Shown: in pieces, positions 3,414 through 45,840 of the stretch
Numbering within the stretch: the first letter of the stretch is position 1
Layout of the letters: the number at the start of each line of letters is the position of its first letter
Source: Bacillota bacterium
GTDB taxonomy: Bacteria; Bacillota_I; Bacilli_A; RF39; UBA660
DNA length: 64,000 nucleotides
Direction of reading: 5' to 3'
Assembly: GCA_015059425.1 (NCBI GenBank)
Contig: SVAM01000001.1
Coordinates: 28,027 to 92,026, forward strand
Position numbers and translations under genes: made by a program
The notes under the pieces: model-generated
Databases searched by the model: none
Seen by the model: only the letters and a program-made list of their open reading frames with translations
What the model was told of the DNA's origin: nothing

Positions 3414-4016
3414 CTAAGCATTTTCTACTATATCTAGATACTTATAAATAGTTGGATACGATAATTGAGTAACTCTAGCAAAAGCCATTTTGTTTAGAGT
3501 TCCATTCTTATACTTAGGATAATACTGCATAAACACCTTTGGAATATCATCATAAGTTGACTTAGGACGTCCTAACTTCTTACCAGCCTTAACAGCTGTA
3601 GCTAATCCTAAATGGATTTGATGTATTTTCAGCTTTGCTTCCATCTCCCCAAAAACCGCGTTAATTTTTAGCATACCTTCAATCATAGGATCTAAACTAC
3701 CATTCCTACAATCTATATCAATACTTCCAACAATAAGCCTAAATTTCTTTGCAATAATCAAATCAATTATTTCACACAAAACCTTTGTATTCCTACACAA
3801 ACGAGTAATATCAGTAACTATTAAAGTATCACCCTCATTCATTTCTTCTAACAGTGCATCAAGTCCAGGTCTATGTTCCTTCCTACCAGAAATATACTCA
3901 TACCTTATATTAGATATATCTACACCTTTATCAATTAATGCATCAATCTGATACTTGACATCTTGTTTTGACTCGTTGGTGGAACAGCGGCAGTAACCCC
4001 ATACTTTGCTTTCCAT
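3414..4016 (-). CDS. Small serine recombinase of the resolvase/invertase family (catalytic domain plus C-terminal HTH).
   Basis: The N-terminus GYCRCSTNESKQDV has the catalytic Ser. The E-helix reads GMLKINAVFGEMEAKLKIHQ and the arm reads GKKLGRPKS. A C-terminal HTH follows. Confidence 0.8.
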   Translation of the reverse strand: MESKVWGYCRCSTNESKQDVKYQIDALIDKGVDISNIRYEYISGRKEHRPGLDALLEEMNEGDTLIVTDITRLCRNTKVLCEIIDLIIAKKFRLIVGSIDIDCRNGSLDPMIEGMLKINAVFGEMEAKLKIHQIHLGLATAVKAGKKLGRPKSTYDDIPKVFMQYYPKYKNGTLNKMAFARVTQLSYPTIYKYLDIVENA

Positions 4017-14057: not shown

Positions 14058-16289
14058 ATGGGAAGAATGAAAAGTGTTGGAACAATCACAAAAAACTTAA
14101 AAAAAGCTTTGACAGGATATAACAAAGGTCAGGATATAACTAGTTATGAAAAATACATATACTTAATCTTATTCTACCGCTTTCTTTCTGAAAGCATAAT
14201 CAAACATATTCAAACTAACTTCAATGTAAATTATATTGAACTAAATAACAATGAGGCAGAAGCATATAAATCTCAAGTGCAAAGTGATATAGATTTCTTC
14301 ATATACCCAGAAGACTTATTCCAAAATATTGTAGCAAAAGAATTGAATAGTAGTCGTTTAGATTCAACATTAAACTCAATATTCAAGAATATCAAACAGT
14401 CTTCTAAATATGAGATATGTGAAATCTTTAGAAACATAGATACTGAAGCAGAAGGTATTGGAACTAGTCAAAATATAAGGAGTAATATATATTCAACCAT
14501 ATTAAAAGCTATATCAGATATTGACTATGACATTAACAAATCTGATTATGACTTATTTGGTAATATCTTTGAATTCTTACTAAACAATAAAGATACAAAC
14601 AATACCATGAGTCTTAAAAACGGCATATTCTATACTCAACCATCAGTAGTAAAACTATTAAAAAAGATTTCAGACCAATATATTACTGATCCTAATAACA
14701 TCTACGATCCTACTTGTGGAAGTGGTTCATTATTAACCGAATATGCAAGATTTAACAATACTATACCTTTCTATGGCAAAGAATTAAATGCAATACCTGC
14801 TATGTTATGTAGAATGAATATGATAATACACAATGTAAAAGACTTTAAAATTACTCAATGTGATACATTGCTAACTTATGATAAAGAAGAAAAAGAAAAG
14901 TACGATTTGATATTTGCTAACCCACCATTTGGAATACCTTGGAATAAATCAACTTTGCGAGAAGACGATGAAAGATTCAATGACAAACCTCTTCCTAATA
15001 AAGAGTTAGCTGATTGGGCATTCATATACCATATCATATACACGCTAAATAAAAATGGATTAGCGTTGGCAATTGATACACCAAACATGTTATCCAGAAC
15101 AAATCCTGAAGAAACTGCAGTAAAAAAACATTTAGTTGATAGCAATCAAATAGATACAATAATACTACTACCTAGAAAGATGTTCCTAAGAACTGATACC
15201 GGTACATGTCTGTTTCTGATTCGAAAAAACAAAACAGACAACAATATATTATTTGTTGATGCAGGTAACATATGTACTAAGAATAGTAATCAAGTAACTT
15301 TTAGTGATGAAAATATAGATAACATCATAGAACTTATATTAGGTAGAAAGAGCATAGACAACCTATCGTACTTAGCAACTCCAGAAGAAATAGCAAATCA
15401 CAAATATTCATTAAATATTTGTGACTACATTAATTATAAAAAAGAACACACATTTACAACTATTGAGGATGTATGCTTATCTGATTTCATTTACGAGAAT
15501 GAAGAAGAAGCTAATTACAAATCACGTTTAAAGTATAATACACAAATTAAAAGGGTTAACGAATGTATAGTCAATACTTTAGAACAACTAAAACAAAGCA
15601 ATCAAATTAAAATGATTCCACTAGCTAATGTTGCCGATATAACTATTGGTTCTAAAATAAAAGACATGAAAATAGATACCAACGATAATTTCCCATATCG
15701 CTACATTACAACAAAGGAAATACAAAATGGTGCTGTTATAGAAGACAGTTCGCTAATGTATATCAAAGAAAACAAAAGTATTCATACAGAAAGAATAAGA
15801 AAAGAAGACTTAGATGAGTTCATTAATAAAGGAAAGTTGAAAAAGGATGATGTATTATTCGCTATTTACTCAAAAGGTACCAAGGCAGCTATAGTACAAA
15901 AACCTAACTTTATATTCTCGGATAGTGTATTTCGATTAAGACCATTTAAAGATATAGAAGACGAAGTATCACCTACATATCTAAGATATGTATTAGAATC
16001 AGATTACTTTGTAGAAAAAATCAATAAACATATCAAAAGATACTATAATAATACTTCTTCTCCTACTAACTATATTACACTCGAAGACTTTAGGCAATTA
16101 ACGATTCCGGTTATTCCTCTAGGTGCTCAAGCAGATATTTGTCTATTGCTAACACTAATGGAAGCGAAATATACAGAACTTGAATTAGCTCTTAAAAGAG
16201 AACTAGAAGTATACCAATATAGGTATCACACAAATACAAAGAAACTATTTAACGATGTAGAAACAGTTGAAGAAGATGAAGAAAACTAA
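14058..16289 (+). CDS. Type I-like N6-adenine DNA methyltransferase (HsdM-type, gamma class) fused to one HsdS-type target-recognition domain. No HsdR is present in the window.
   Basis: The HsdM N-domain (YEKYIYLILFYRFLSE) and DLFGNIFEFLL...GIFYTQPSVVKLL are present. Motif I is YDPTCGSGSLL and motif IV is FANPPFG. The C-terminal ~240 aa has the HsdS TRD signature LTIPVIPLGAQADICLLLTL plus a coiled-coil tail. Confidence 0.85.
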   Translation: MGRMKSVGTITKNLKKALTGYNKGQDITSYEKYIYLILFYRFLSESIIKHIQTNFNVNYIELNNNEAEAYKSQVQSDIDFFIYPEDLFQNIVAKELNSSRLDSTLNSIFKNIKQSSKYEICEIFRNIDTEAEGIGTSQNIRSNIYSTILKAISDIDYDINKSDYDLFGNIFEFLLNNKDTNNTMSLKNGIFYTQPSVVKLLKKISDQYITDPNNIYDPTCGSGSLLTEYARFNNTIPFYGKELNAIPAMLCRMNMIIHNVKDFKITQCDTLLTYDKEEKEKYDLIFANPPFGIPWNKSTLREDDERFNDKPLPNKELADWAFIYHIIYTLNKNGLALAIDTPNMLSRTNPEETAVKKHLVDSNQIDTIILLPRKMFLRTDTGTCLFLIRKNKTDNNILFVDAGNICTKNSNQVTFSDENIDNIIELILGRKSIDNLSYLATPEEIANHKYSLNICDYINYKKEHTFTTIEDVCLSDFIYENEEEANYKSRLKYNTQIKRVNECIVNTLEQLKQSNQIKMIPLANVADITIGSKIKDMKIDTNDNFPYRYITTKEIQNGAVIEDSSLMYIKENKSIHTERIRKEDLDEFINKGKLKKDDVLFAIYSKGTKAAIVQKPNFIFSDSVFRLRPFKDIEDEVSPTYLRYVLESDYFVEKINKHIKRYYNNTSSPTNYITLEDFRQLTIPVIPLGAQADICLLLTLMEAKYTELELALKRELEVYQYRYHTNTKKLFNDVETVEEDEEN

Positions 16290-16297
16290 AGGAAAGA

Positions 16298-16328
16298 GAA
16301 TGCTCTCTTTCCTTTGTTTTATATGGTC
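16298..16328. terminator. Bidirectional rho-independent terminator at the MTase 3' end and the truncated PBP 3' end.
   Basis: Perfect 9-bp stem ggaaagaga-atgc-tctctttcc followed by tttgtttt. Confidence 0.6.
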
Positions 16329-17229
16329 ACTGTATGGTAGGTACGTGCTTAAATGTACTTCCCGGTTCATAAGTCATCCATATAGGCAAATTACGGTTAA
16401 TAACTTCAGTTTTATAATCTTGATAATTGTTACTATTAAAGTTAGGTCGACTTGCCATTGCAAGTATTTCACCAGTATTAGGGTTCATAGCCATAATTAA
16501 TGCTTGCTCTGGATTATATTTATCTATCGCATTATCAAGCTCGTTTTCAACAGCCATTTGAATATCCATATCAATCGTAAGTTTTAAAGTTATTCCGCTT
16601 GTTGGAGCTTCATAAATTTCTGTTAATTCTAACTTATTTCCTTTTCCATCTGAAAAGTATTTTATTGCACCATCTGCACCAGTCAAATATTCATCATAAT
16701 AAAGTTCTATACCTGATAAACCTTGATTATCAATACCGACATAACCAAGAACATGTGACAAAACCGTTTCATAAGGATAATATCTTTTACTCTCTTTTAA
16801 AAGATATACCCCATCATATCCTAAAGCATCAATTTTTTCTGCAATATCAAAATCTAGTCTTCTTCCTTCTGGATGCACTCTTTCAATTGATGTAGATTTG
16901 GTTACATGTGAAAGCATATCTTTATAATCAGAATTTAAAATATTAGCTAAATCTTTTGCAACTTTCTCCGGTTCATCTATTTGCCCTGGTACTACTACTA
17001 ATGATACTGTAGTTACATTATTAGCCAAAACTTTACCATTTCTATCAACAATTAAACCTCTGTCAGCTTTAATAGGAAGTTCTCTGCTCCACAAACTTTC
17101 TGCCAAAGTATTCAATTTTTCATAAGTAAATACTTGTATATAAAATACTTTAATAATAATTGCAATCAAAATAATTATACATACTAAAAATATAAATCTA
17201 ATTCTTTCATGAATATTAGAATAAAACAT
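16327..17229 (-). pseudogene. SpoVD/FtsI-like class B penicillin-binding protein, N-terminal 300 aa only. It ends 6 codons after the SxxK active-site motif.
   Basis: A TM anchor and PBP dimerisation domain are followed by ...WMTYEPGSTFK-HVPTIQ-stop. The intact paralogue at 61192-63360 has YEPGSTMK at the equivalent position and continues for another ~390 aa. Confidence 0.75.
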
Positions 17230-17275
17230 ATAACCACCTAGAAAAATATATGCATAATTAAAAAAGTTAGAAGTT

Positions 17276-19105
17276 TTAGCTTCTAACCAATGTATATATA
17301 TCTTTTTTTAATAAAGTAGCACTTAACATATCTATTTCTTCTAAAGAATAATTACTACCATAAATTATAGAATAGAAAATTATTTCATTATTAATTAAAT
17401 CAAACTTACTTAAATTTCTTAGTAGTCTATTAATAGACACATACACTCCATTAATAAATAAAATATAATTATTTATTTTATAATCCAATAAAACTTCTGG
17501 TAGCACCATATCAAACATATTATTACTATTCAATGTATTAATTATATTACACGGAATAAATGTTTCACTACTAGTTATAAAATCTTCAGTTTGCCAACTA
17601 ACATCATTTAATTCAATATTTAAACTTAAAAATATTTTCTTTTTATAAATTTGTTCAATGCTTAAATTAAGTACATCTAAAGTATTTAATTCTGCATATA
17701 AACCCATTTCTATTAACATATCAATTTTTTGAATTAGATTATTATCATTCAAAAATGAAATACACTTAGTTTCTCTTGTAACATTTATATTATATTCATT
17801 TAATACTTTTAAATTAACTAATAAATTTTTATTTAGCAATATATTTAAAGAGTTAGAGTAATTAATAATATTTATGTTATATCTACTTAAAATATTAATA
17901 TTATTTAATAATGTATCTAAATCATCATTAATTGAAAATAACAACTGAAGATTAGCTTCTATAAATTCTTTATTTATACACCCTTTTATTAATAACCCTT
18001 CTATTACTTTAAGTTTATTAATATCTATAAAAATAATATTCATAATATCTAAGTTAATTTTATATTTATATAAAAACTGAAGAATAATTTTTATTTTATC
18101 ATACCCCAAATTTTTAATAATATTTTTATTACTATCATCAAGCTCTAAATAATCATAATTATATTTAGCAAATAAAATTGTTAAACTTTCATCACTAGTT
18201 CTCTTTAAATCATTATATTGTTCTATTAAACCTTCATAATAAACTTTATTATGATTTAATATATAATTAATAACCAAAACTTTAATTTCTTCATCAGGGC
18301 ATAATCTTAATACTTTTTCTATGTCTTTTATTTCTCCCTCAGCATTAAGTAATAATCTTAAGTCGTCAATTTTTTTATTGTGACGATTAATTTCTTTTAA
18401 CTCACGATCTAATTGTCCTAAAATTTCATTATATTTAGAATGTAATCTATTAAAATAATCAGTAAATAATATTGCTATCTCATCACCAGTATGTAACAAA
18501 GCTTCAAAATTCTTTCTTGCCCATCTTTTTTCTACAGCATCTTTAGTAAGTAATACTTCCTTACTTGATATGGAAAAATGATGAAAATCAATAGCTGCCT
18601 TAAAATCCTCAAATCCCAAATTTTTAAAAACAACTTCAAACTTTTCTCTAGTATTAGGATCTTTTAAAAATTCACATAAAAGCTTAGTTACTTCAGTATC
18701 TATCTCATTATCGGTACAAAAAGCTAACAAATTTCTAAGAACTTTACCAAAAAACTCATTTTTTGCAAATATAACTGTATCAATTAATTCTTTATAATCT
18801 TCACTGTGATAATAAATCCCCAAAGCTGAAATTAAATTATAATCTCCATTAACAAATATCTCTGAATATTCCTCAATGATCTCTATTATTATTTTAGTTT
18901 TATAAGGGTTATTAATCAGAATTACACTTGTCATTACTTCTTCAAATGTCATTTCACTCGCTTTAAAAAAATCTCTAGCAGGATATTTTTTAAAGAAATT
19001 TTTAAAATATTCTCTAAAAGCATTTATATTCTCTATTTTTTCATTATCAACATCAACCTTTAAAGAAGTTATTAAACTATTTAAGTGTTGGCGCATCATC
19101 TTCAC
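17276..19105 (-). CDS. Hypothetical protein (609 aa), Asn/Ile/Leu/Lys-rich, in a very low-GC block.
   Basis: Long ORF that overlaps the upstream gene by 29 nt. No nucleotide-binding motifs were seen. Confidence 0.45.
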   Translation of the reverse strand: MKMMRQHLNSLITSLKVDVDNEKIENINAFREYFKNFFKKYPARDFFKASEMTFEEVMTSVILINNPYKTKIIIEIIEEYSEIFVNGDYNLISALGIYYHSEDYKELIDTVIFAKNEFFGKVLRNLLAFCTDNEIDTEVTKLLCEFLKDPNTREKFEVVFKNLGFEDFKAAIDFHHFSISSKEVLLTKDAVEKRWARKNFEALLHTGDEIAILFTDYFNRLHSKYNEILGQLDRELKEINRHNKKIDDLRLLLNAEGEIKDIEKVLRLCPDEEIKVLVINYILNHNKVYYEGLIEQYNDLKRTSDESLTILFAKYNYDYLELDDSNKNIIKNLGYDKIKIILQFLYKYKINLDIMNIIFIDINKLKVIEGLLIKGCINKEFIEANLQLLFSINDDLDTLLNNINILSRYNINIINYSNSLNILLNKNLLVNLKVLNEYNINVTRETKCISFLNDNNLIQKIDMLIEMGLYAELNTLDVLNLSIEQIYKKKIFLSLNIELNDVSWQTEDFITSSETFIPCNIINTLNSNNMFDMVLPEVLLDYKINNYILFINGVYVSINRLLRNLSKFDLINNEIIFYSIIYGSNYSLEEIDMLSATLLKKDIYTLVRS

Positions 19106-20039
19106 CCCCTAAAGTATAATCTTTAGAATCTAGAATAGCTATTATTTCATCATAAATTGCATTATGTTGAGAAGTAAAATCTGGATTATTCATATTAGCC
19201 AAATAATAATTTTTAGCATTTAAATATTTAACAGATCTATTTACTTTAGTTTTACGATACAATTCGCTGGTATCTTCTTTCTTCATAAAAGTATCAATTA
19301 TTAATATCTTGCCATCACTTAATCTTGCAAAAGTAATACGCATTTTAGAATCTTTAACTTCAAAATAAGATATCTTATGTAAATATTTCAAACCTCTATA
19401 TTTACAATTTTTAATTCCTACTAATAATTTTTTTAAATCAGGATAATATTCTATAGGAATATTTTTTCTTATACTTTCTAATAAAATTATATTACCGCTA
19501 TCACTAGTTAGAAAGTACAACTCATTAGTTAATGCCGTTGATTCTTGGACTTCTTTTTCTAAAGTTAATTCCTCTAGTATACACATTTTATTTTTTATTA
19601 TTTCAATAATTTCTTTAATCTCTTCCAACTCTTCTTTAGAACTAGTTTTAGAAATCATTTTAGAATATAAAATAATTTCTCCATAAAGTTTTAATCTAAT
19701 TCCATTTATTAATTGCATATATCTAATATTATCAGACGATAAAATTTTATTTATTTTTTCTATAATTACGTCTTCATTCAAATTTGTAATATCAAGCATG
19801 CTTATAGCATGATAAACTTTATCTAATTCTGCATCAACACTAATAGAAGTATTTGAATTTATAGTCTCTTTAATAGAATTATGGAAACTGCTACCACTAT
19901 GTACTACACTACTTGGAGTTCGCATACTTGTAATCTTATTTTTTAATTTTGAAGCCCTTGAAATATTTTCTTTAATAACTTCTATTTTATGTTCTAAATT
20001 TTCTTCGGTAGGTACCAAAAAATAATCCTCATACAACAT
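19077..20039 (-). CDS. Hypothetical protein (320 aa) whose C-terminal ~90 aa resemble the RelE/HigB (Gp49-like) toxin fold.
   Basis: The C-terminus reads YRGLKYLHKISYFEVKDSKMRITFARLSDGKILIIDTFMKKED. The N-terminal 200 aa are unassigned. Confidence 0.4.
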   Translation of the reverse strand: MLYEDYFLVPTEENLEHKIEVIKENISRASKLKNKITSMRTPSSVVHSGSSFHNSIKETINSNTSISVDAELDKVYHAISMLDITNLNEDVIIEKINKILSSDNIRYMQLINGIRLKLYGEIILYSKMISKTSSKEELEEIKEIIEIIKNKMCILEELTLEKEVQESTALTNELYFLTSDSGNIILLESIRKNIPIEYYPDLKKLLVGIKNCKYRGLKYLHKISYFEVKDSKMRITFARLSDGKILIIDTFMKKEDTSELYRKTKVNRSVKYLNAKNYYLANMNNPDFTSQHNAIYDEIIAILDSKDYTLGGEDDAPTLK

Positions 20040-20084
20040 AAAAAATCCCCCCTTTAATTGGGGGATATTATAGCATTTTTATAA

Positions 20085-20495
20085 TTATCTGTCAAATTTA
20101 ACACTTATCACTTTTTCTAAAAATAAATGATGGGCATCCTTATAAGTTAAATTATCAGGTTCTGAATCAAATAAACCTATTTCTTCCATTTCAAAATCAG
20201 GTATTTTATCAAATTTAATTATTTTGGCATAGCAAAGTATTCCAAAAGTAGAAATCTTATATAAACAAATAGGTTCTATTACTACATCTATTGCACCTGT
20301 TTCTTCATATAATTCTCTTTTAGCGGCCTCTAGCCACGTTTCTCCTTCTTCAATATGGCCTCCTGGTATTTCCCAAGTTCCACGTTCTTTATGCCTTGAA
20401 TACACCCATTTCCCATTATATTCTGATACACAAATAACACGGGTTAATTCACTATCAAGAATATAACCTAAATCATATATTTTTACTGGTAACAT
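20085..20495 (-). CDS. Nudix-family hydrolase.
   Basis: Nudix box GGHIEEGETWLEAAKRELYEETG. Confidence 0.8.
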   Translation of the reverse strand: MLPVKIYDLGYILDSELTRVICVSEYNGKWVYSRHKERGTWEIPGGHIEEGETWLEAAKRELYEETGAIDVVIEPICLYKISTFGILCYAKIIKFDKIPDFEMEEIGLFDSEPDNLTYKDAHHLFLEKVISVKFDR

Positions 20496-20514
20496 ATTAA
20501 TCTCCCTTTCAAAA

Positions 20515-21501
20515 TCAATTAAATATATCTCTTATATAATTTTTTATATTAACAAATATATTATTTTGTTTTTTATCAATAGCTATTTCATCCTTTAGTG
20601 ATAAAACACTATTTCCTTTATATATCCATACAGGAAAATTATCAGTAACCTTTAATAATTCATTATATAGTTCTTTAATATTATCAGCTATTTTTAATAA
20701 TACTGTTTCATTATTTATATCAAACCCACTATATGTAATAATATCTTTTAATAACAATTCAATTGATTTGCTATCTAAATGTAATTCTAAAAAACTTAAA
20801 AATTCAAATATCTCTAAATTAAATAAATTAATGTTATACTTACCTATACTTATAACTTCTTCTAAAGAATAAATCTTATATTCCAAATCATCTTTTTTTA
20901 ACTTTAATACATCTTTATAATAATAATTTTCTAAAGAAACAATATATTCTTTTTTCTTATATTTAACAATTGTTAATTTATCTTTAAATCTAGTATTATC
21001 CAAAATATCTTTTTTTGTGTCATATATATTTATATTATATTTTTTTAATATTAAATTAAAATCTTCAATAGATAATACATTATAAATTCTTAATACACCT
21101 ATTACTAGGCTATTAAAAATATCTATAAAATTAAATTCTTTCTCATTATATATATTTAAAGCCATTTTAACATAATTTAATATATCTTTAGGTATTATAT
21201 ATTTATCATCATGTTTAATTATCAAATAATTACTTTGTAAATTTTTATTAATTATATACCCAATATAACTATTATCATTAGTTTTATATCCATCATTTAA
21301 TATTTTTTTTAAGACGTTTATTTCTTCAGTAGTACATAAATCAAGTATTATTTCCTGTTTCTTTTTATAAAGAGAAATGATATCATTATAAATATCATTT
21401 CTTGTTATACTATCATATTTTTTAGGGTTTAAAATTAATTTACAATAGAAATTATATAAATTTTCTTTCTTTTCTTTTTTTATATAGTCTTTTAATGTCA
21501 T
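20515..21501 (-). CDS. Hypothetical protein (328 aa).
   Basis: Its start overlaps the ezrA stop in an ATGA arrangement. The composition is extremely AT-rich. Confidence 0.45.
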   Translation of the reverse strand: MTLKDYIKKEKKENLYNFYCKLILNPKKYDSITRNDIYNDIISLYKKKQEIILDLCTTEEINVLKKILNDGYKTNDNSYIGYIINKNLQSNYLIIKHDDKYIIPKDILNYVKMALNIYNEKEFNFIDIFNSLVIGVLRIYNVLSIEDFNLILKKYNINIYDTKKDILDNTRFKDKLTIVKYKKKEYIVSLENYYYKDVLKLKKDDLEYKIYSLEEVISIGKYNINLFNLEIFEFLSFLELHLDSKSIELLLKDIITYSGFDINNETVLLKIADNIKELYNELLKVTDNFPVWIYKGNSVLSLKDEIAIDKKQNNIFVNIKNYIRDIFN

Positions 21502-23231
21502 TTGTATTCCTCAATTAATCTTTTATGTATTCCAGGTTCTACAACATTTATAGCACTTATAGCTTGTTCTAAACTTAATTTAAAATTACCTTTAAAGAAA
21601 GCATTTTCAGCTTTAATTAAACCTAATTCTACATCTTTATTTACAGCACGATATCTATTTCCATATACTATTGCTGTTTCTGCCATTTTTGCAGTTTTAA
21701 TGGATTCTTTAGTTGTATTATAAACTTTTAACGTTAAATCTCTAGCAGTATCTACTCTTGTATTTAATGTTTTTATTGATATAGGCCTTTTATCTAGCTC
21801 TTTGATCATATCACCAATAGCTTCGCTAGCCTCACCTAATTCAACATAGAAATTTTTAGGTGTTACTGGAAGTTTAAAGCTTTTAATATTACTTTTGGAT
21901 TGTTTTAAAATATTTTTAATTTCATCTAATTGTTCTCTAGCTCTTTTTTCATCTTCTTTTAAGCTAGCTAAACTTCTTAATGTTTGTTCTAATTTTTCTT
22001 CAGTTTTAGATAATTTAGCATTAATAAGCTCCATTTCTTTACCAAGCCTTGAGAAAGCAAATGTGTGATTTCTATGCATATCCACTACTCTATTATAATC
22101 ATCTTTAATTTCTTTTAACTCTTCATCAATATCTTCTAAAACTTTTAAATCATCATCTACTAAATCATAACTGTATTTTAAATCATCAATTCTTTTATTT
22201 AAATCAGCACTGATTTTTTCTAATTTAGTAGCTTTTATTAAAATACTTCTTTGATAATCTTCAAATATTCTTTTAGATATTTTTTCTTTATCAAAATTAT
22301 GATACAAAGAATCAAAGTAATCTAAAATTGTTTTAAGTTCAAAAACACTATCTTCTAAATTTAAAACATTTAATCTTGCAAAAATATCACTTATTTTTTT
22401 ATCTGATTCAGTAATATTATAAGGTATATTTAAATAATCTAGATTATAACCTTCCTTTTCCATTTTAGTAGTAATCTTATTAATATCATCTATTTTAGCA
22501 GGTATTAGTTTTTTACCCATTATAATTATTGAAGGCGCCTCTTCTATAACTATTTTTAAATTACCAATGGTATCATCAATAGCTTTTACAATTTTCCCAA
22601 CTTCAGTATATTCATTCTTATCCATAGCATTTTCAAATATACTGAATAATTTATCAGCATTTTCAAATTGTAATTCTAAAGGTTTTTCTACTTCACTATA
22701 ATCACTTTTATTAGAATTATATTTAGATAGAATACCCCTATAATCAGCTTTTAATTTAGTTATTGTTTCCCTGTTTTTTTCTTCACTTAAGGTTATTTCT
22801 TTTATCTCATCAAGTAAAAAGTTAGATTTAGTTTTAACATATGCAATTTGAAGTTCTAATGCCGCAATTTTACTTTTTAAAGACTTATAATCTTTATCTT
22901 CAAATATTTCTTCTATATCAATTAATGCATCAGTTATTTTTGGTACTTCAACATCCTTTATTTCTTTTAATCTTAAACACCAATTATCATATTTTTTTTG
23001 CATTATATCATTATTAATTAATGCTCCAACTTTATTTAGTTCTGATAAAATAGATGCATTTACTATTAAATTTTTATCTCTTTCTAAAGTAGTAATTTCT
23101 TCCTTATATTTTTTCTTTTCTCTTTTATTTATAAAATTTAATACTAGTACTAAAGTTACAACAGTAATTATATAATAAAGAATACCTATTAATATAAAAG
23201 TAGTTCTTGTCATAAGACTCACTCCTATCAT
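21498..23231 (-). CDS. ezrA: Septation ring formation regulator EzrA.
   Basis: An N-terminal TM helix is followed by ~540 aa of coiled coil. The 577-aa size and architecture are typical of EzrA. Confidence 0.7.
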   Translation of the reverse strand: MIGVSLMTRTTFILIGILYYIITVVTLVLVLNFINKREKKKYKEEITTLERDKNLIVNASILSELNKVGALINNDIMQKKYDNWCLRLKEIKDVEVPKITDALIDIEEIFEDKDYKSLKSKIAALELQIAYVKTKSNFLLDEIKEITLSEEKNRETITKLKADYRGILSKYNSNKSDYSEVEKPLELQFENADKLFSIFENAMDKNEYTEVGKIVKAIDDTIGNLKIVIEEAPSIIIMGKKLIPAKIDDINKITTKMEKEGYNLDYLNIPYNITESDKKISDIFARLNVLNLEDSVFELKTILDYFDSLYHNFDKEKISKRIFEDYQRSILIKATKLEKISADLNKRIDDLKYSYDLVDDDLKVLEDIDEELKEIKDDYNRVVDMHRNHTFAFSRLGKEMELINAKLSKTEEKLEQTLRSLASLKEDEKRAREQLDEIKNILKQSKSNIKSFKLPVTPKNFYVELGEASEAIGDMIKELDKRPISIKTLNTRVDTARDLTLKVYNTTKESIKTAKMAETAIVYGNRYRAVNKDVELGLIKAENAFFKGNFKLSLEQAISAINVVEPGIHKRLIEEYK

Positions 23232-41875: not shown

Positions 41876-42643
41876 TTAATTATTAAACTTTTTAGCTAAT
41901 AATTTCTTTTCCGAATATATTTTATTATTATCTTTAAAGTAATGGTATGTATCTTTTTTTAATAATTTTAAATCAATATCATTATGATATTTAACTTTAC
42001 TATATTTTAAATCATATAAATGTCTTTCCATTAAAAATCTAAAATATTCATATTTAAAATCTTTAAAAGTTGTTATTATTTTATAAATTAAAAAACTAAT
42101 AACTAAATAATTATTTAAAGAATATATTTCATTATAAGTTATAAATAAAAAAATAAAAGTGATACTTACTATGAAACTTAGATAAAATGCTTTTTTGTAA
42201 GGCAATATTAATTCCCATATACTTCTAAAAAAGATATATCCATCTAAAGGTATAATGGGAAGCATATTAAATAGCATTATTGTTTTATTATAATTAATAA
42301 ATAACACATATGTATTACTTGATATATAACTAAATTTAAACATTATTAAAAAGATAAATCCTAATATAATTTGAAAAACTATTCCAAATATAGAAATTAA
42401 TATTTCATGTTTTATACTAGTATTTATTTTTTTATTTATAGTAGTTACTCCACCCATGGGATATATATCTACTTTTATTATTTTGTATTTTAACAATTTT
42501 ACTATAAAAATATGCCCTAATTCATGAACTATAACTATTAAATAAATTAAAATAATATTTTTTATTAAGCCTGTAAATAAAAAAGTTAATATTAAAAAAT
42601 AAGTCGAAATATTAACTTTAAATAAGTTTTTGATACTCTTCAT
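41876..42643 (-). CDS. spoIVFB: Site-2 protease family M50 (SpoIVFB-like).
   Basis: A HELGH zinc motif lies in a TM helix. The protein is polytopic and the gene order is spoIVFA-spoIVFB. Confidence 0.6.
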   Translation of the reverse strand: MKSIKNLFKVNISTYFLILTFLFTGLIKNIILIYLIVIVHELGHIFIVKLLKYKIIKVDIYPMGGVTTINKKINTSIKHEILISIFGIVFQIILGFIFLIMFKFSYISSNTYVLFINYNKTIMLFNMLPIIPLDGYIFFRSIWELILPYKKAFYLSFIVSITFIFLFITYNEIYSLNNYLVISFLIYKIITTFKDFKYEYFRFLMERHLYDLKYSKVKYHNDIDLKLLKKDTYHYFKDNNKIYSEKKLLAKKFNN

Positions 42644-43259
42644 ATGTTATATATTTACCATCTTTGTTTATTGTTAAATATATAAAATCACTATTGCTAG
42701 TTCCTAAAATAGCACCAGATTCTACATAATCATATATTTTAATATTAGTATCTGTTATATTAGAATACCAAATATCTACTCCATCATTACCTTGAATAAT
42801 TATAGTATTTCCTAAATCATCTTTTTCACCTATAAATACTACTATGCCACTAGTTATTACATTTACCACTTCATTAATACCTGTAGTTAGTTTTACTCCA
42901 TTTTTATAATTTTCAATATTAGAATAATCAATACTATTAAAAAATACGCTTGTTGAATCATCTTTAGGTTCACTTAATATATCTACTTCCCCAAATAAAC
43001 TTTGATATAAATTATTTATTTTAGTAAAACCTAAAGAGTTTTCAAGTACATATTCTTTATAAATTTTTTTATTATTATCACTTAAATTAGTAAATATAAT
43101 ACTTCCTAAAACAAATATTATTGAAAGCAGTACTCTTGATATTAAACCTTTAATATATTTTAAATTTTTAGGCAAGTCATCTTTGTTACTAGATTTATCA
43201 CTATTTATATAGTTCATTCTTTTTTCTTTATTTTTTCTTATAATTTCTTCTACATCCAT
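42618..43259 (-). CDS. spoIVFA: SpoIVFA-like membrane protein with a degenerate LytM/M23 domain.
   Basis: A TM anchor is followed by ITSGIVVFIGEKDDLGNTIIIQGNDGVDIWYSNI, a LytM-like segment that lacks the metal-binding His residues. Confidence 0.5.
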   Translation of the reverse strand: MDVEEIIRKNKEKRMNYINSDKSSNKDDLPKNLKYIKGLISRVLLSIIFVLGSIIFTNLSDNNKKIYKEYVLENSLGFTKINNLYQSLFGEVDILSEPKDDSTSVFFNSIDYSNIENYKNGVKLTTGINEVVNVITSGIVVFIGEKDDLGNTIIIQGNDGVDIWYSNITDTNIKIYDYVESGAILGTSNSDFIYLTINKDGKYITYEEYQKLI

Positions 43260-43265
43260 TAATTA

Positions 43266-43670
43266 TCACCTAGATAATTTTATGTATTTAAAAACTATAT
43301 TATAACTAAGTAAATAAAATATTATATTTATGACATAATTTTGTGAAATAAATTTAAATATATATAAGTAAGAATAATTATTTAATAAACCTAATATTAA
43401 AATATAACTTATATATATAATACTTATTGATAAAAAATAGTTAAATAAATTTATTTTTACTATTTTAAATTTCTTATATATTAAAAATAATATTATTAAA
43501 ATTATTGTATTAAAAAAATATTTATTTAATATCAACAAATCTAATATTAAGGTAATTATTATTAATTTGTGAAAATCTTCTTTTCTTATAAGTAATATAT
43601 TTAATAAAAAAAAGTAAGTAGGAAATATACTAAAATAAGATATTAAAATATCAAGTAATAATAAAATCAT
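43266..43670 (-). CDS. mreD: Rod shape-determining protein MreD.
   Basis: It is a small polytopic membrane protein and overlaps the mreC 3' end. Confidence 0.5.
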   Translation of the reverse strand: MILLLLDILISYFSIFPTYFFLLNILLIRKEDFHKLIIITLILDLLILNKYFFNTIILIILFLIYKKFKIVKINLFNYFLSISIIYISYILILGLLNNYSYLYIFKFISQNYVINIIFYLLSYNIVFKYIKLSR

Positions 43671-44311
43671 ACTATTACTCCAACATATTTAATATTATTA
43701 AAATTATTATAAGTATTTATGTCTAGGATATATTCTAGTTCTAAACTATCTCTATTTACTTTAGTAACTGTTCCTATTTTTATATTTCCTGGTATATCAG
43801 TTAAACCAGAAGTAGAAACTATATCTCCTACTTTTATTTCATTATCCAGTTTAATATTATTTACATAGAGTTTATTATCTTTAGAATATAAAATACCATA
43901 AGAATTATTTATTTTAACTGATATGTTTATATCTTTATTAGTAATAAGTTTAACTTCACTATAATTTTTATATACTTTATCTATAACCCCTATTAAACCT
44001 AAACTATTAATTACAATATTACCTTTTTTTATATTATCATTTAATCCTTTATTAATCGTAACTTTATTATAAAAGTCATAAATATCTCTAATAATTATTT
44101 TAGAATAAATTAAATTGTAATTATCTATTTTAATATTTAATAATTCAGATAAATCTTCATATTCAAGTTTATAATCTAAATTATTATATGTACAAAAATT
44201 ATTTGTTTCTTTAGCTTTAAATAAACCAATAAAAGTATCTTTTCCTAAAACAAAAAGATATATAGTTATTAAAAATATATAAAATCCATATTTTTTTAAC
44301 ATAGTATTCAC
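43667..44311 (-). CDS. mreC: Rod shape-determining protein MreC.
   Basis: An N-terminal TM helix is followed by the beta-domain segments SLGLIGVIDKV and VSTSGLTDIPGNIKIGTV. Confidence 0.65.
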   Translation of the reverse strand: MNTMLKKYGFYIFLITIYLFVLGKDTFIGLFKAKETNNFCTYNNLDYKLEYEDLSELLNIKIDNYNLIYSKIIIRDIYDFYNKVTINKGLNDNIKKGNIVINSLGLIGVIDKVYKNYSEVKLITNKDINISVKINNSYGILYSKDNKLYVNNIKLDNEIKVGDIVSTSGLTDIPGNIKIGTVTKVNRDSLELEYILDINTYNNFNNIKYVGVIV

Positions 44312-44331
44312 CTAATATTATTATGAGTAAT

Positions 44332-44784
44332 TTATACATTTATATATTCATTAAATAACTTTAATAAAGAATTATTTATATTTTCATAATAACTTCTATC
44401 ACTTGTTTTTATTAATAACTCATAATTACTTATAACATTTAAAAAGTCTACACTTGCTTTCATAGTTTCTTTAGTAAACTTTACATCCTTATCTATAAAG
44501 TAGCTTTCCATTAATTCTATACTTTCTTTTTCTTTATATACTCCAATGATAACCTTATAAATACCATCTTTGTTGTATATTAAAGCATTTTTATAATTAT
44601 TCTTTTTATTATTAGCACTTTCCATATTATTATAAGATCCAACACAAAAATATGTTACTTTAGATTCTAAAGCATTAGTAATAATCGTATTATCATACTT
44701 ATAACAAAATATATAACTTGATACTATTCCTATAATTAAAGCCACGAAAAAAACTTTAACATTTTGCTTCATATACCTCACCAA
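44332..44784 (-). CDS. Hypothetical membrane-anchored protein, possibly SPOR-like.
   Basis: It has an N-terminal TM helix. The YKVIIGVYKEKESIELMESYF segment is weakly SPOR-like. Confidence 0.3.
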   Translation of the reverse strand: MVRYMKQNVKVFFVALIIGIVSSYIFCYKYDNTIITNALESKVTYFCVGSYNNMESANNKKNNYKNALIYNKDGIYKVIIGVYKEKESIELMESYFIDKDVKFTKETMKASVDFLNVISNYELLIKTSDRSYYENINNSLLKLFNEYINV

Positions 44785-44928
44785 AAGTATATTAACATAG
44801 TAATCTAAAATATTATGTCGAACTATGATTTTTTAAATTTTATCGCCTGACACAATTCGACAAATTTTGCTTATTTAATATGTTATCCTAAATTTATTTC
44901 TTTTTAAAGAAGTTAGAAAGGAGGTAAA

Positions 44929-45840
44929 ATGTTAAAAGAAAAAATATTTATAAGTTTAAGTGAAGATTTACTTTTTAAAGAAGCTTTTACACATATTGAT
45001 AATAGGCATATATTAATTGATTATCTAGCTACTATGACTAATTTTACTAAAGAATATTTAGAAAGCGTTGATATTGATGTAGTTTATGAAAGCATTATGA
45101 CCAAAACAAAAATTAACGATAAATCCATGCGCGGAGATATAATTATAAAATTTGATAACTATATTATAAATTTAGAATCATATTCATACTTCGATGCATT
45201 ATCTTTTGATAAATCAACTAGTTACATAATGAGAATATTTTCAACTCAGTTAGATCGAGGCGAAGATTATAATTTGCTGGAAAGTGTTATTCAAATAAAT
45301 ATAATAGATAATGTTGAAATACCTTTTACAAATAAAGTTAAAAGTAATTATTTTATAACTAACGAAGAAGATATAAATGACAAAAAATTAGCTGATAAAT
45401 TTATTATAAAATACTACCGAATTGACAAAGCTAGAGAGATAGAATATAATGAAAGCGATAGAGAAATTAGATGGTTAAAATTTATTGGAGCTAAAAGCGA
45501 CGAAGAAAGAAAATTAATAGCTAAAGGAGATGAAATATTAATGGCAATGGATAATTTTGTCTATGAATATATAAATGACGAGAAAACTAAAAAAATATTT
45601 GGTGAATGGGCAGAATATATTGCAAGTGAAAAAGCTCGTAAAATAGGATTAAAAGAAGGACGAGAGCAAGGCATCAAGGAAGGCATCAAAGAAGGCATCA
45701 AAGAAGGTATTGAACAAGGTAAATTAGAAAATAATTTAAAAATTGTTAGTAATTTGTTATCTATGGATACATCACTTGAGGATATTTCTAAAATAACAGG
45801 TTTATCTATTAATGAAATAAAAGAATTGAGCAAAAATTAA
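44929..45840 (+). CDS. Rpn-family recombination-promoting nuclease / putative transposase (YhgA-like PD-(D/E)XK).
   Basis: The N-terminus DLLFKEAFTHIDNRH is typical. The C-terminal tail carries tandem GIKEG repeats (GIKEGIKEGIKEGIEQG), visible as 15-bp DNA repeats at ~45668-45720. Confidence 0.7.
   Translation: MLKEKIFISLSEDLLFKEAFTHIDNRHILIDYLATMTNFTKEYLESVDIDVVYESIMTKTKINDKSMRGDIIIKFDNYIINLESYSYFDALSFDKSTSYIMRIFSTQLDRGEDYNLLESVIQINIIDNVEIPFTNKVKSNYFITNEEDINDKKLADKFIIKYYRIDKAREIEYNESDREIRWLKFIGAKSDEERKLIAKGDEILMAMDNFVYEYINDEKTKKIFGEWAEYIASEKARKIGLKEGREQGIKEGIKEGIKEGIEQGKLENNLKIVSNLLSMDTSLEDISKITGLSINEIKELSKN

Follow-up and report, generated by a model that had tools for sequence, protein, structure and literature searches.

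CapRel is a fused toxin–antitoxin (TA) defense module in which a tRNA pyrophosphokinase toxin is held off by a linked, fast-evolving region. The HigBA system of Streptococcus pneumoniae (PDB 6af3/6af4; PF05973) is encoded with the toxin gene first in the operon and pairs the HigB toxin with HigA, a ~100 amino acid (aa) XRE-type antitoxin. Mutagenesis has shown that the HigB residues R68, R73, F90 and K92 are needed for RNase activity and toxicity (PMC7984235), and in Cami1, a CARF–RelE effector of type III CRISPR systems, a RelE domain is fused to a regulatory domain and stays inactive until a signal arrives (PMC11229360). Here, we analyze a 64,000-nucleotide stretch of DNA from a Bacillota bacterium (GenBank assembly GCA_015059425.1, contig SVAM01000001.1, positions 28,027 to 92,026 of the forward strand; hereafter the window) and focus on two adjacent genes, encoding proteins of 320 and 609 residues, which lie between ezrA and the gene of a SpoVD/FtsI-like penicillin-binding protein (PBP). 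The 320-aa protein is predicted to carry a HigB/RelE-type domain, and the two genes appear to form an operon of their own with the candidate toxin gene first.

The pair and the domains of its first protein are laid out as follows:

19077-20039, minus strand: open reading frame (ORF) of the 320-aa protein, from the ORF reading; helical at residues ~1-170, HigB/RelE-type at ~171-262 and with a helical tail at ~263-305 according to AlphaFold2 (AF2), Foldseek and alignments
19254-19529, minus strand: HigB/RelE-like domain, residues 171-262, topology beta-alpha-alpha-beta-beta-beta-beta
17276-19105, minus strand: ORF of the 609-aa protein, its length counted from a GTG

The AF2 model of the 320-aa protein has a mean predicted local distance difference test (pLDDT) score of 74.6, with values of about 76-91 across residues 171-262. 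It is built of helices at residues 15-166, a β-strand at 173-176, α-helices at 185-193 and 196-210, β-strands within 218-252 and further helices at 253-304, and so displays the N-terminal strand, the two-helix hairpin and the 3-4-stranded antiparallel sheet that characterize the RelE/ParE fold. Foldseek comparison with the PDB returned S. pneumoniae HigB (6af3/6af4) at the top, with a probability of 1.0, an E-value of 9e-4 and a target-normalized TM-score of 0.62-0.66. Further matches were Cami1 (8phb; probability 0.99), Mycobacterium tuberculosis RelE1 (9g12_B; target-normalized TM-score 0.73) and RelE2 (3g5o), and the model had no match in a viral structure library.

A profile of the C-terminal half of the protein aligned with HigB 6af3 at an E-value of 0.4, placing fEVKdfkvRItF...daFMKKedts against wELRplrdRILF...hhFMKRTQKT. 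The motif common to the 320-aa family and HigB is E-[LV]-[RK]...R-[IL]-x-F...(17 residues)...F-M-K-[KR], in which the spacing of 17 residues from the arginine to the phenylalanine is identical on both sides. Pfam Gp49 (PF05973) was matched by one out of five homologues (E 0.0036).

We collected ~45 related loci of uncultured, AT-rich gut Bacilli from a scan of species-representative genomes (40 loci, retrieved with an alignment of the family of the 328-aa protein encoded next to ezrA) and from metagenome contigs, and annotated them with profiles of each family. Submitters had labeled the 40 loci as uncultured Bacilli, Tenericutes, Mycoplasma sp. CAG:776 and a few others; metagenome-assembled genomes with such labels usually belong, we assume, to the order RF39. 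Among the 14 family members that contain the region, the putative catalytic positions, which align in order with R68, R73, F90 and K92 of HigB, are occupied almost without variation: K229 is lysine or arginine in 14/14, R234 is kept in 14/14, F251 in 13/14 and K253 in 14/14. Mean pairwise identity is 48% in the RelE-like domain, compared with 28% in the N-terminal domain and 31% in the tail, and the ratio of non-synonymous to synonymous substitution rates (dN/dS) of this domain, 0.06-0.24, is the lowest in the protein (0.15-0.42 for the whole gene). The original prediction, made from the letters of the window, had recognized a segment reminiscent of RelE/HigB/Gp49 toxins at the C-terminal end of the protein; the structure match and the residue conservation, together with the profile alignment, back this assignment, with a sequence similarity that stays under the Pfam thresholds. 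On the strength of the model, the conclusion that the 320-aa protein carries a HigB/RelE-type domain holds.

The likeness to HigB thus extends to the fold, the order of strands and helices, the four validated residues and a helix that follows the sheet in both proteins, and the toxin-first order of higBA recurs in the pair. In contrast to HigB, the domain is embedded between a ~170-residue helical N-terminal domain, which has no detectable relative, and a ~45-residue tail. These extensions are conserved, all homologues being 302-323 aa long, whereas small stand-alone toxins measure ~90-120 aa. The pair also differs from the HigB family in occupying one chromosomal site with vertical inheritance and in being known from sequence and a model, and from HigBA in its partner of ~600 aa, which has no recognizable helix-turn-helix (HTH). 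Cami1 is a ribosome-dependent RelE-family mRNA nuclease contained in a larger protein, and the predicted architecture of the 320-aa protein is alike in this respect. Unlike Cami1, however, the 320-aa protein has a purely helical N-terminal domain and no CARF domain, there are no CRISPR or cyclase genes nearby, and the 609-aa partner has no relation to Cam3, the membrane protein found alongside Cami1.

The signals that delimit the pair are the following:

20067-20095, minus strand: promoter of the pair, TTGACA, 17 nt, TGcTATAAT, with the -35 box inside the last codons of the upstream Nudix hydrolase gene
20045-20066, minus strand: hairpin ATCCCCC-aattaaag-GGGGGAT followed by a U-run, from a terminator scan (fold -12.2 kcal/mol)
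17265-17288, minus strand: terminator hairpin GGTTAGAAG-ctaaaa-CTTCTAACT followed by a T-run, from a terminator scan

The promoter is the sole 12/12 match with an extended -10 box in the ~7 kb between 16.2 and 23.4 kb. Eleven of the 14 pair-bearing loci have a TTGAC(A/T)-16/17-TA(T/A/C)AAT element equally far from the start codon, and L051 has a TTGAAA variant. Directly 3' of the -10 box lies the 20045-20066 hairpin, whose 3' arm doubles as the Shine-Dalgarno sequence for the 320-aa gene. A hairpin that pairs the Shine-Dalgarno with an anti-Shine-Dalgarno sequence and is followed by a U-run occurs between the -10 box and the ATG in 10 of the 14 loci, with sequences that differ between loci but preserve the pairing (CCCCC/GGGGG, TCCT/AGGA, CTCC/GGAG and AGTCT/AGACT). 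Three loci of the ezrA lineage without this leader hairpin have a separate terminator-like hairpin just upstream of the promoter (L006, the fourth without it, is left out of this comparison). The hairpin looks like a terminator that would insulate the pair from the upstream transcript of ezrA, the 328-aa gene and the Nudix gene.

At the other end, the loop of the downstream terminator (GTTAGAAG...CTTCTAAC plus T-run) holds the stop codon of the 609-aa gene and the hairpin lies just upstream of the PBP promoter. It overlaps the stop codon in the same way in L001 and L003, and it is kept upstream of PBP in L010, which is without the pair. The insertion/deletion between the window and L010 is clean. 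Within the operon, the frames of the two genes overlap by 20-29 nt, and across the sample the 609-family gene comes next after the 320-family gene without exception, either overlapping it or lying 1-3 nt away. An AGGGGG Shine-Dalgarno sequence for the 609-aa gene is found at 19110-19105, inside the 320-aa gene, which makes the ATG at 19099 or 19096 a likelier start, and the protein is therefore probably 607 or 606 aa long. No small ORF is conserved within the operon, judging from the ORF list of the window and the annotated related loci. Read from the sequence, the pair is a self-contained operon with a consensus sigma-A promoter, predicted terminators on both sides and translational coupling of its two genes.

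The 609-aa protein is predicted to be cytoplasmic and has conserved blocks at residues 251-350, 401-500 and 551-600. Residues 101-200 (about 18506-18805) are hypervariable, with 16% mean pairwise identity among 14 orthologues versus ~40% in the neighboring blocks. A word-indexed homologue search retrieved only the protein itself, and an exhaustive phmmer search retrieved a family of 185 clusters at 50% identity, all of about 600-660 aa. Comparison of the family profile with PDB sequences and of its members with Pfam, using whole proteins as well as the conserved 385-530 segment, gave nothing consistent, and profile–profile comparison showed the family to be unrelated to those of the 328-aa and 320-aa proteins. 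We also considered mTERF-like repeats of ~32 residues, for which the sequence gave no more than a marginal internal-repeat signal (best hhalign P 0.0015 in 21 comparisons).

Both genes of the pair evolve fast. dN/dS is 0.20-0.60 for the 609-aa gene and 0.02-0.07 for ezrA and PBP, so that the values of the pair are 5-10 times those of the flanking genes. With values of 0.15-0.6, an extreme AT-driven amino-acid composition, frequent loss of the pair and a segment of the 609-aa protein that is essentially unconserved, the pair and the 328-aa gene might be regarded as decaying or functionless orphans that drift under relaxed constraint. This is unlikely: frames of ~300 and ~600 codons are intact, with conserved lengths, in 14 genomes as well as in lineages at 20-30% identity, and dN/dS lies below 1 wherever it is reliable, reaching its minimum in the RelE-like domain. 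The promoter, the Shine-Dalgarno sequence, the terminator and the putative catalytic residues are conserved besides.

The pair is present in 14 of the ~45 related genomes, where the two genes are adjacent and always in the order 320 then 609, and it is scattered through every major clade of the EzrA tree. It lies directly upstream of PBP in 11 of the 14; other genes follow in L043 and L051, and L028 ends at a contig edge. Trees of the 609 family and of EzrA contain the same three clades (Mantel p ~0.002), and in close genome pairs the fast genes and the flanks show similar synonymous divergence (dS; 0.22-0.30 and 0.33-0.39, respectively, for L017/L019). Since tree and dS match those of the flanking genes, we consider the pair to be ancestral and repeatedly lost rather than recently acquired. 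The simplest history suggested by these comparisons is an ancestral pair at this site that was lost on the order of ten times, with no need for horizontal arrival; patchy presence alone would fit a horizontal island, whereas the core-like composition, the lack of mobility genes and flanking repeats and the congruent tree do not. More distant relatives also have the two genes side by side. In L006, from a far more diverged lineage, they encode proteins of 321 and 631 aa (26-33% identity) and are flanked by a pyrH-like gene on one side and rplU on the other. In L055, whose subfamily stands at about 20-25% identity, the 320-like ORF retains the motif and overlaps a 634-aa gene by ATGA. Going by these sequences, the association of the two genes is much older than the ezrA lineage of the genomes studied here.

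The fold match, the profile alignment and the conserved catalytic residues make a toxin-like two-gene module a reasonable reading of the pair. We propose, with a probability of about 0.5, that it is a TA-like or abortive-infection module of toxin-first, higBA-type order and atypical architecture. In such a module, the RNase domain would be kept inactive by the 609-aa partner, either by itself or jointly with the helical extensions of its neighbor; on release, the HigB-type domain would enter the ribosomal A site and cleave mRNA, and translation would stop. Toxicity of the 320-aa protein, its neutralization by the 609-aa protein and a role in phage defense or addiction are inferred. If the inference is right, the pair shares its logic with CapRel, namely a translation-targeting toxin restrained by a linked or co-encoded, fast-evolving and possibly sensing element. 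The two differ in chemistry, that predicted for the pair being RNase chemistry, and are not known to be homologous.

Several observations weigh against the proposed toxin module. The 320-aa protein of the window has no match to Pfam Gp49 or RelE at E <= 10, below any sequence threshold for membership, and PADLOC and PHROGs models match neither protein of the pair. A type II TA system has a small, autoregulating XRE-HTH antitoxin next to the toxin, whereas the sole partner here is ~600 aa long, 5-6 times larger than any HigA, and no HTH or antitoxin family was detected in 56 members of its family. Searches of plasmids, phages and viral contigs (IMG/VR) retrieved neither the 320-aa nor the 609-aa protein, and vertical descent at one fixed site of the chromosome is atypical of mobile TA or defense cassettes. 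Windowed dN/dS revealed convincing positive selection in no segment; one comparison of the hypervariable segment of the 609-aa protein gave an omega of 1.5, at saturated divergence.

The strongest competing reading is a domesticated RelE-fold factor, that is, a housekeeping or developmental factor specific to this lineage, for instance a regulator of ribosomes or RNA, acting in division, envelope or sporulation and using the domain for binding or controlled RNA processing rather than to arrest growth. It would account for the fixed core site between ezrA and the SpoVD/FtsI-like PBP, mraY and ftsW, for the L006 pair that likewise sits among core genes, for descent congruent with the host and absence from all mobile-element collections searched, and for a large partner unlike an antitoxin. 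A domesticated factor is nevertheless harder to reconcile with roughly ten losses among close relatives (EzrA 81-95% identical), the nearest of them, L010, included, because such repeated loss indicates that the pair is dispensable. Evolution 5-10 times faster than that of the neighbors, insulation from the division genes on both sides, as predicted from promoter and terminators, and retention of the HigB catalytic residues also speak against it, and we regard domestication as doubtful.

Returning to the toxin-module reading, a bolder form of it can be put forward tentatively, as possible rather than probable: the pair may found an undescribed two-component class of translation-arrest systems, which would combine an embedded HigB-type RNase with a ~600-residue, fast-diverging helical sensor or inhibitor in place of a DNA-binding antitoxin. 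The features that might set such a class apart are the hypervariable residues 101-200 of the partner, a fixed site across a lineage of gut Bacilli, at least 185 clusters and no mobile spread.

The two genes upstream of the pair and the anchors on either side are listed here:

20085-20495, minus strand: ORF of the 136-aa Nudix protein, from the ORF reading
20515-21501, minus strand: ORF of the 328-aa protein, from the ORF reading
21498-23231, minus strand: ezrA (Pfam EzrA, E 2e-97), context and anchor of the locus
16327-17229, minus strand: N-terminal fragment (aa 1-294) of the SpoVD/FtsI-like PBP, from Pfam PBP_dimer and Transpeptidase and from tblastn with an intact 634-aa orthologue

The original prediction had joined the 328-aa, Nudix, 320-aa and 609-aa genes into one compositionally distinct, horizontally acquired block. 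Its description of four tightly packed minus-strand genes of these sizes is accurate, as are the ATGA overlap of the 328-aa gene start with the ezrA stop, the 19 nt gap to the Nudix gene and the overlapping frames of the pair. It had also noted the absence of ATPase and nuclease motifs, and no such families were detected among the four proteins with Pfam, NCBIfam, PADLOC or PHROGs. These libraries recognized the 136-aa Nudix protein alone; in PADLOC-DB v2, the 328-aa, 320-aa and 609-aa proteins are without a match and the Nudix box matches the candidate model PDC-S07. Rfam and tRNA scans of the window gave no matches.

The compositional argument, in contrast, did not stand. The flanking core had been put at ~33% GC, whereas the core (21.5-64 kb), in segments sized as the block, has a mean GC of 24.8% (standard deviation 2.5%), and 11% of these segments are at or below the 21.5% of the block. 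Individual core genes have 23.6% (ezrA), 25.3% (spoIVB) and 27.8% (proS). GC at third codon positions (GC3) is 9-15% in the four block genes and 9.5-13% in the same three core genes, compared with 22.6% in hsdM, a gene of the island that occupies 1-16.3 kb and has 29.4% GC. The segment of odd composition is therefore the island and not the block, whose low total GC we attribute to weakly constrained proteins rich in Asn, Ile, Lys and Tyr rather than to foreign DNA. A core stretch at 42000-45000 has a GC of 16-19%, below that of the block, and one core ORF has just 10.6%.

A single low-GC defense or addiction island made up of the four genes could draw on their tight packing on one strand, on the PDC-S07 match of the Nudix box and on the variability of the slot between genomes. 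We consider it very improbable. Low GC in a 25%-GC genome combined with tight packing is not evidence for horizontal acquisition here, and neither GC nor GC3 departs from the values of the core. The 328-aa gene accompanies ezrA everywhere and is coupled to it. The Nudix gene and the pair can each be present without the other and have a terminator and a promoter of the pair's own between them, and dS and tree congruence indicate vertical descent. No recombinase or other mobility genes were found in the block, and direct or inverted repeats flanking the pair or the block amount to chance AT-rich matches. The four genes are thus not one system, but three unrelated units in a variable slot of the core chromosome. 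Ubiquitous, vertically inherited homologues syntenic with ezrA had been named at the outset as grounds for abandoning the proposal; the 328-aa gene has precisely these properties, whereas the RelE likeness of the 320-aa protein survived the structure and profile comparison.

The independence of the units is apparent from the slot between the 328-family gene and the PBP (17230-20514 in the window), a hotspot of gene-content variation that ranges from ~50 bp to 8.5 kb. Its flanks stay conserved, with EzrA and PBP 75-100% identical across the ~45 genomes (75-99.8% for EzrA), and ezrA is at once followed by the 328-family gene in every locus. Median identities are 81% for EzrA and 85% for PBP, and 48%, 36% and 32% for the 328-aa, 320-aa and 609-aa proteins. 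Nine genomes have nothing in the slot (about 50 bp), and many others have a recurrent module in which an S26 signal peptidase is encoded together with a giant protein (800-1650 aa) and a bPH-domain protein. The pair stands alone in eight genomes and follows the S26 module in three. The closest relatives of the window, L010/L011 (EzrA 95% and 328-aa protein 81% identical), have the Nudix gene alone in the slot. Co-occurrence of the four families across genomes, suggested as a check of the module, is not seen: Nudix gene and pair are found together in the window genome only, the Nudix gene is missing from the other 13 pair-bearing genomes and L010 has the Nudix gene but not the pair, which identifies the two as independent units.

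The Nudix gene is present at this slot only in the window and in L010/L011. The complete Nudix box recognized in the original prediction is confirmed, as GHIEEGETWLEAAKRELYEETGA fits Gx5Ex7REUxEExGU and Pfam NUDIX (PF00293) assigns the 136-aa protein to the family with 48.6 bits (cut-off 21.1). The best solved relative is BsRppH (4jzu; E 1e-9), and the protein resembles Bacillus subtilis RppH/YtkD and MutT-type enzymes in its single-domain size and complete Nudix box. It differs from RppH/YtkD in scoring 62.2 bits with the TIGR02705 YtkD equivalog, far below the cut-off of 154.4 bits, so that orthology to RppH is not established. Outside the window genome, it is not linked to the toxin-like pair. 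The sequence comparisons identify the gene as that of a small, putatively BsRppH/MutT-like hydrolase that was inserted independently in this sub-lineage.

The 328-aa gene comes directly after ezrA at every related locus, and its ATGA overlap indicates translational coupling. Its family comprises 54 clusters at 42-81% identity. The AF2 model (pLDDT 92.3, predicted TM-score 0.88) consists of tandem winged-helix-like pieces and yielded no significant global match in the PDB, with local winged-helix similarities only. Most homologues end in a SEC-C zinc motif, which is missing in the window copy and in L003, L008 and L010. Despite the coupling, the gene evolves roughly 2-12 times faster than ezrA (dN/dS 0.10-0.50 versus 0.02-0.06). 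It is a lineage-specific, vertically inherited gene that belongs with ezrA and lies outside the toxin-like pair.

The downstream edge of the slot is the PBP gene, which in the window is cut off by the island. The PBP gene is interrupted in three related genomes, namely the window, L001 (5744-10320) and L010 (11500-16168). In the window, it ends at aa ~294 and is followed by the GC-richer island of more than 16 kb (1-~16340), which encodes a small resolvase (3414-4016) and a fusion of a type I restriction–modification methylase and specificity subunit (14058-16289); the C-terminal part of the PBP lies outside the window. In L001, a 2.6-kb element encoding a 519-aa serine recombinase interrupts the gene at aa ~349, beyond which the frame continues intact, and the split in L010/L011 is at aa ~351. 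On the opposite side of the locus, spoIVB adjoins ezrA. Intervening elements that are excised during development are known in sporulation genes, and by analogy the elements that interrupt the PBP gene could be of this kind.

If the pair is active, the RelE/HigB family would gain an architecture in which the toxin domain is embedded in a larger protein and accompanied by a very large, non-repressor partner. An active pair would also mean that a toxin module can persist by vertical inheritance at one core locus over the long term despite repeated loss, and this pattern of persistence with loss is relevant to the question of a selfish, defensive or regulatory nature of toxin modules in chromosomes. 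A testable function would thereby be assigned to two "hypothetical" protein families that are common in an abundant group of uncultured gut bacteria.

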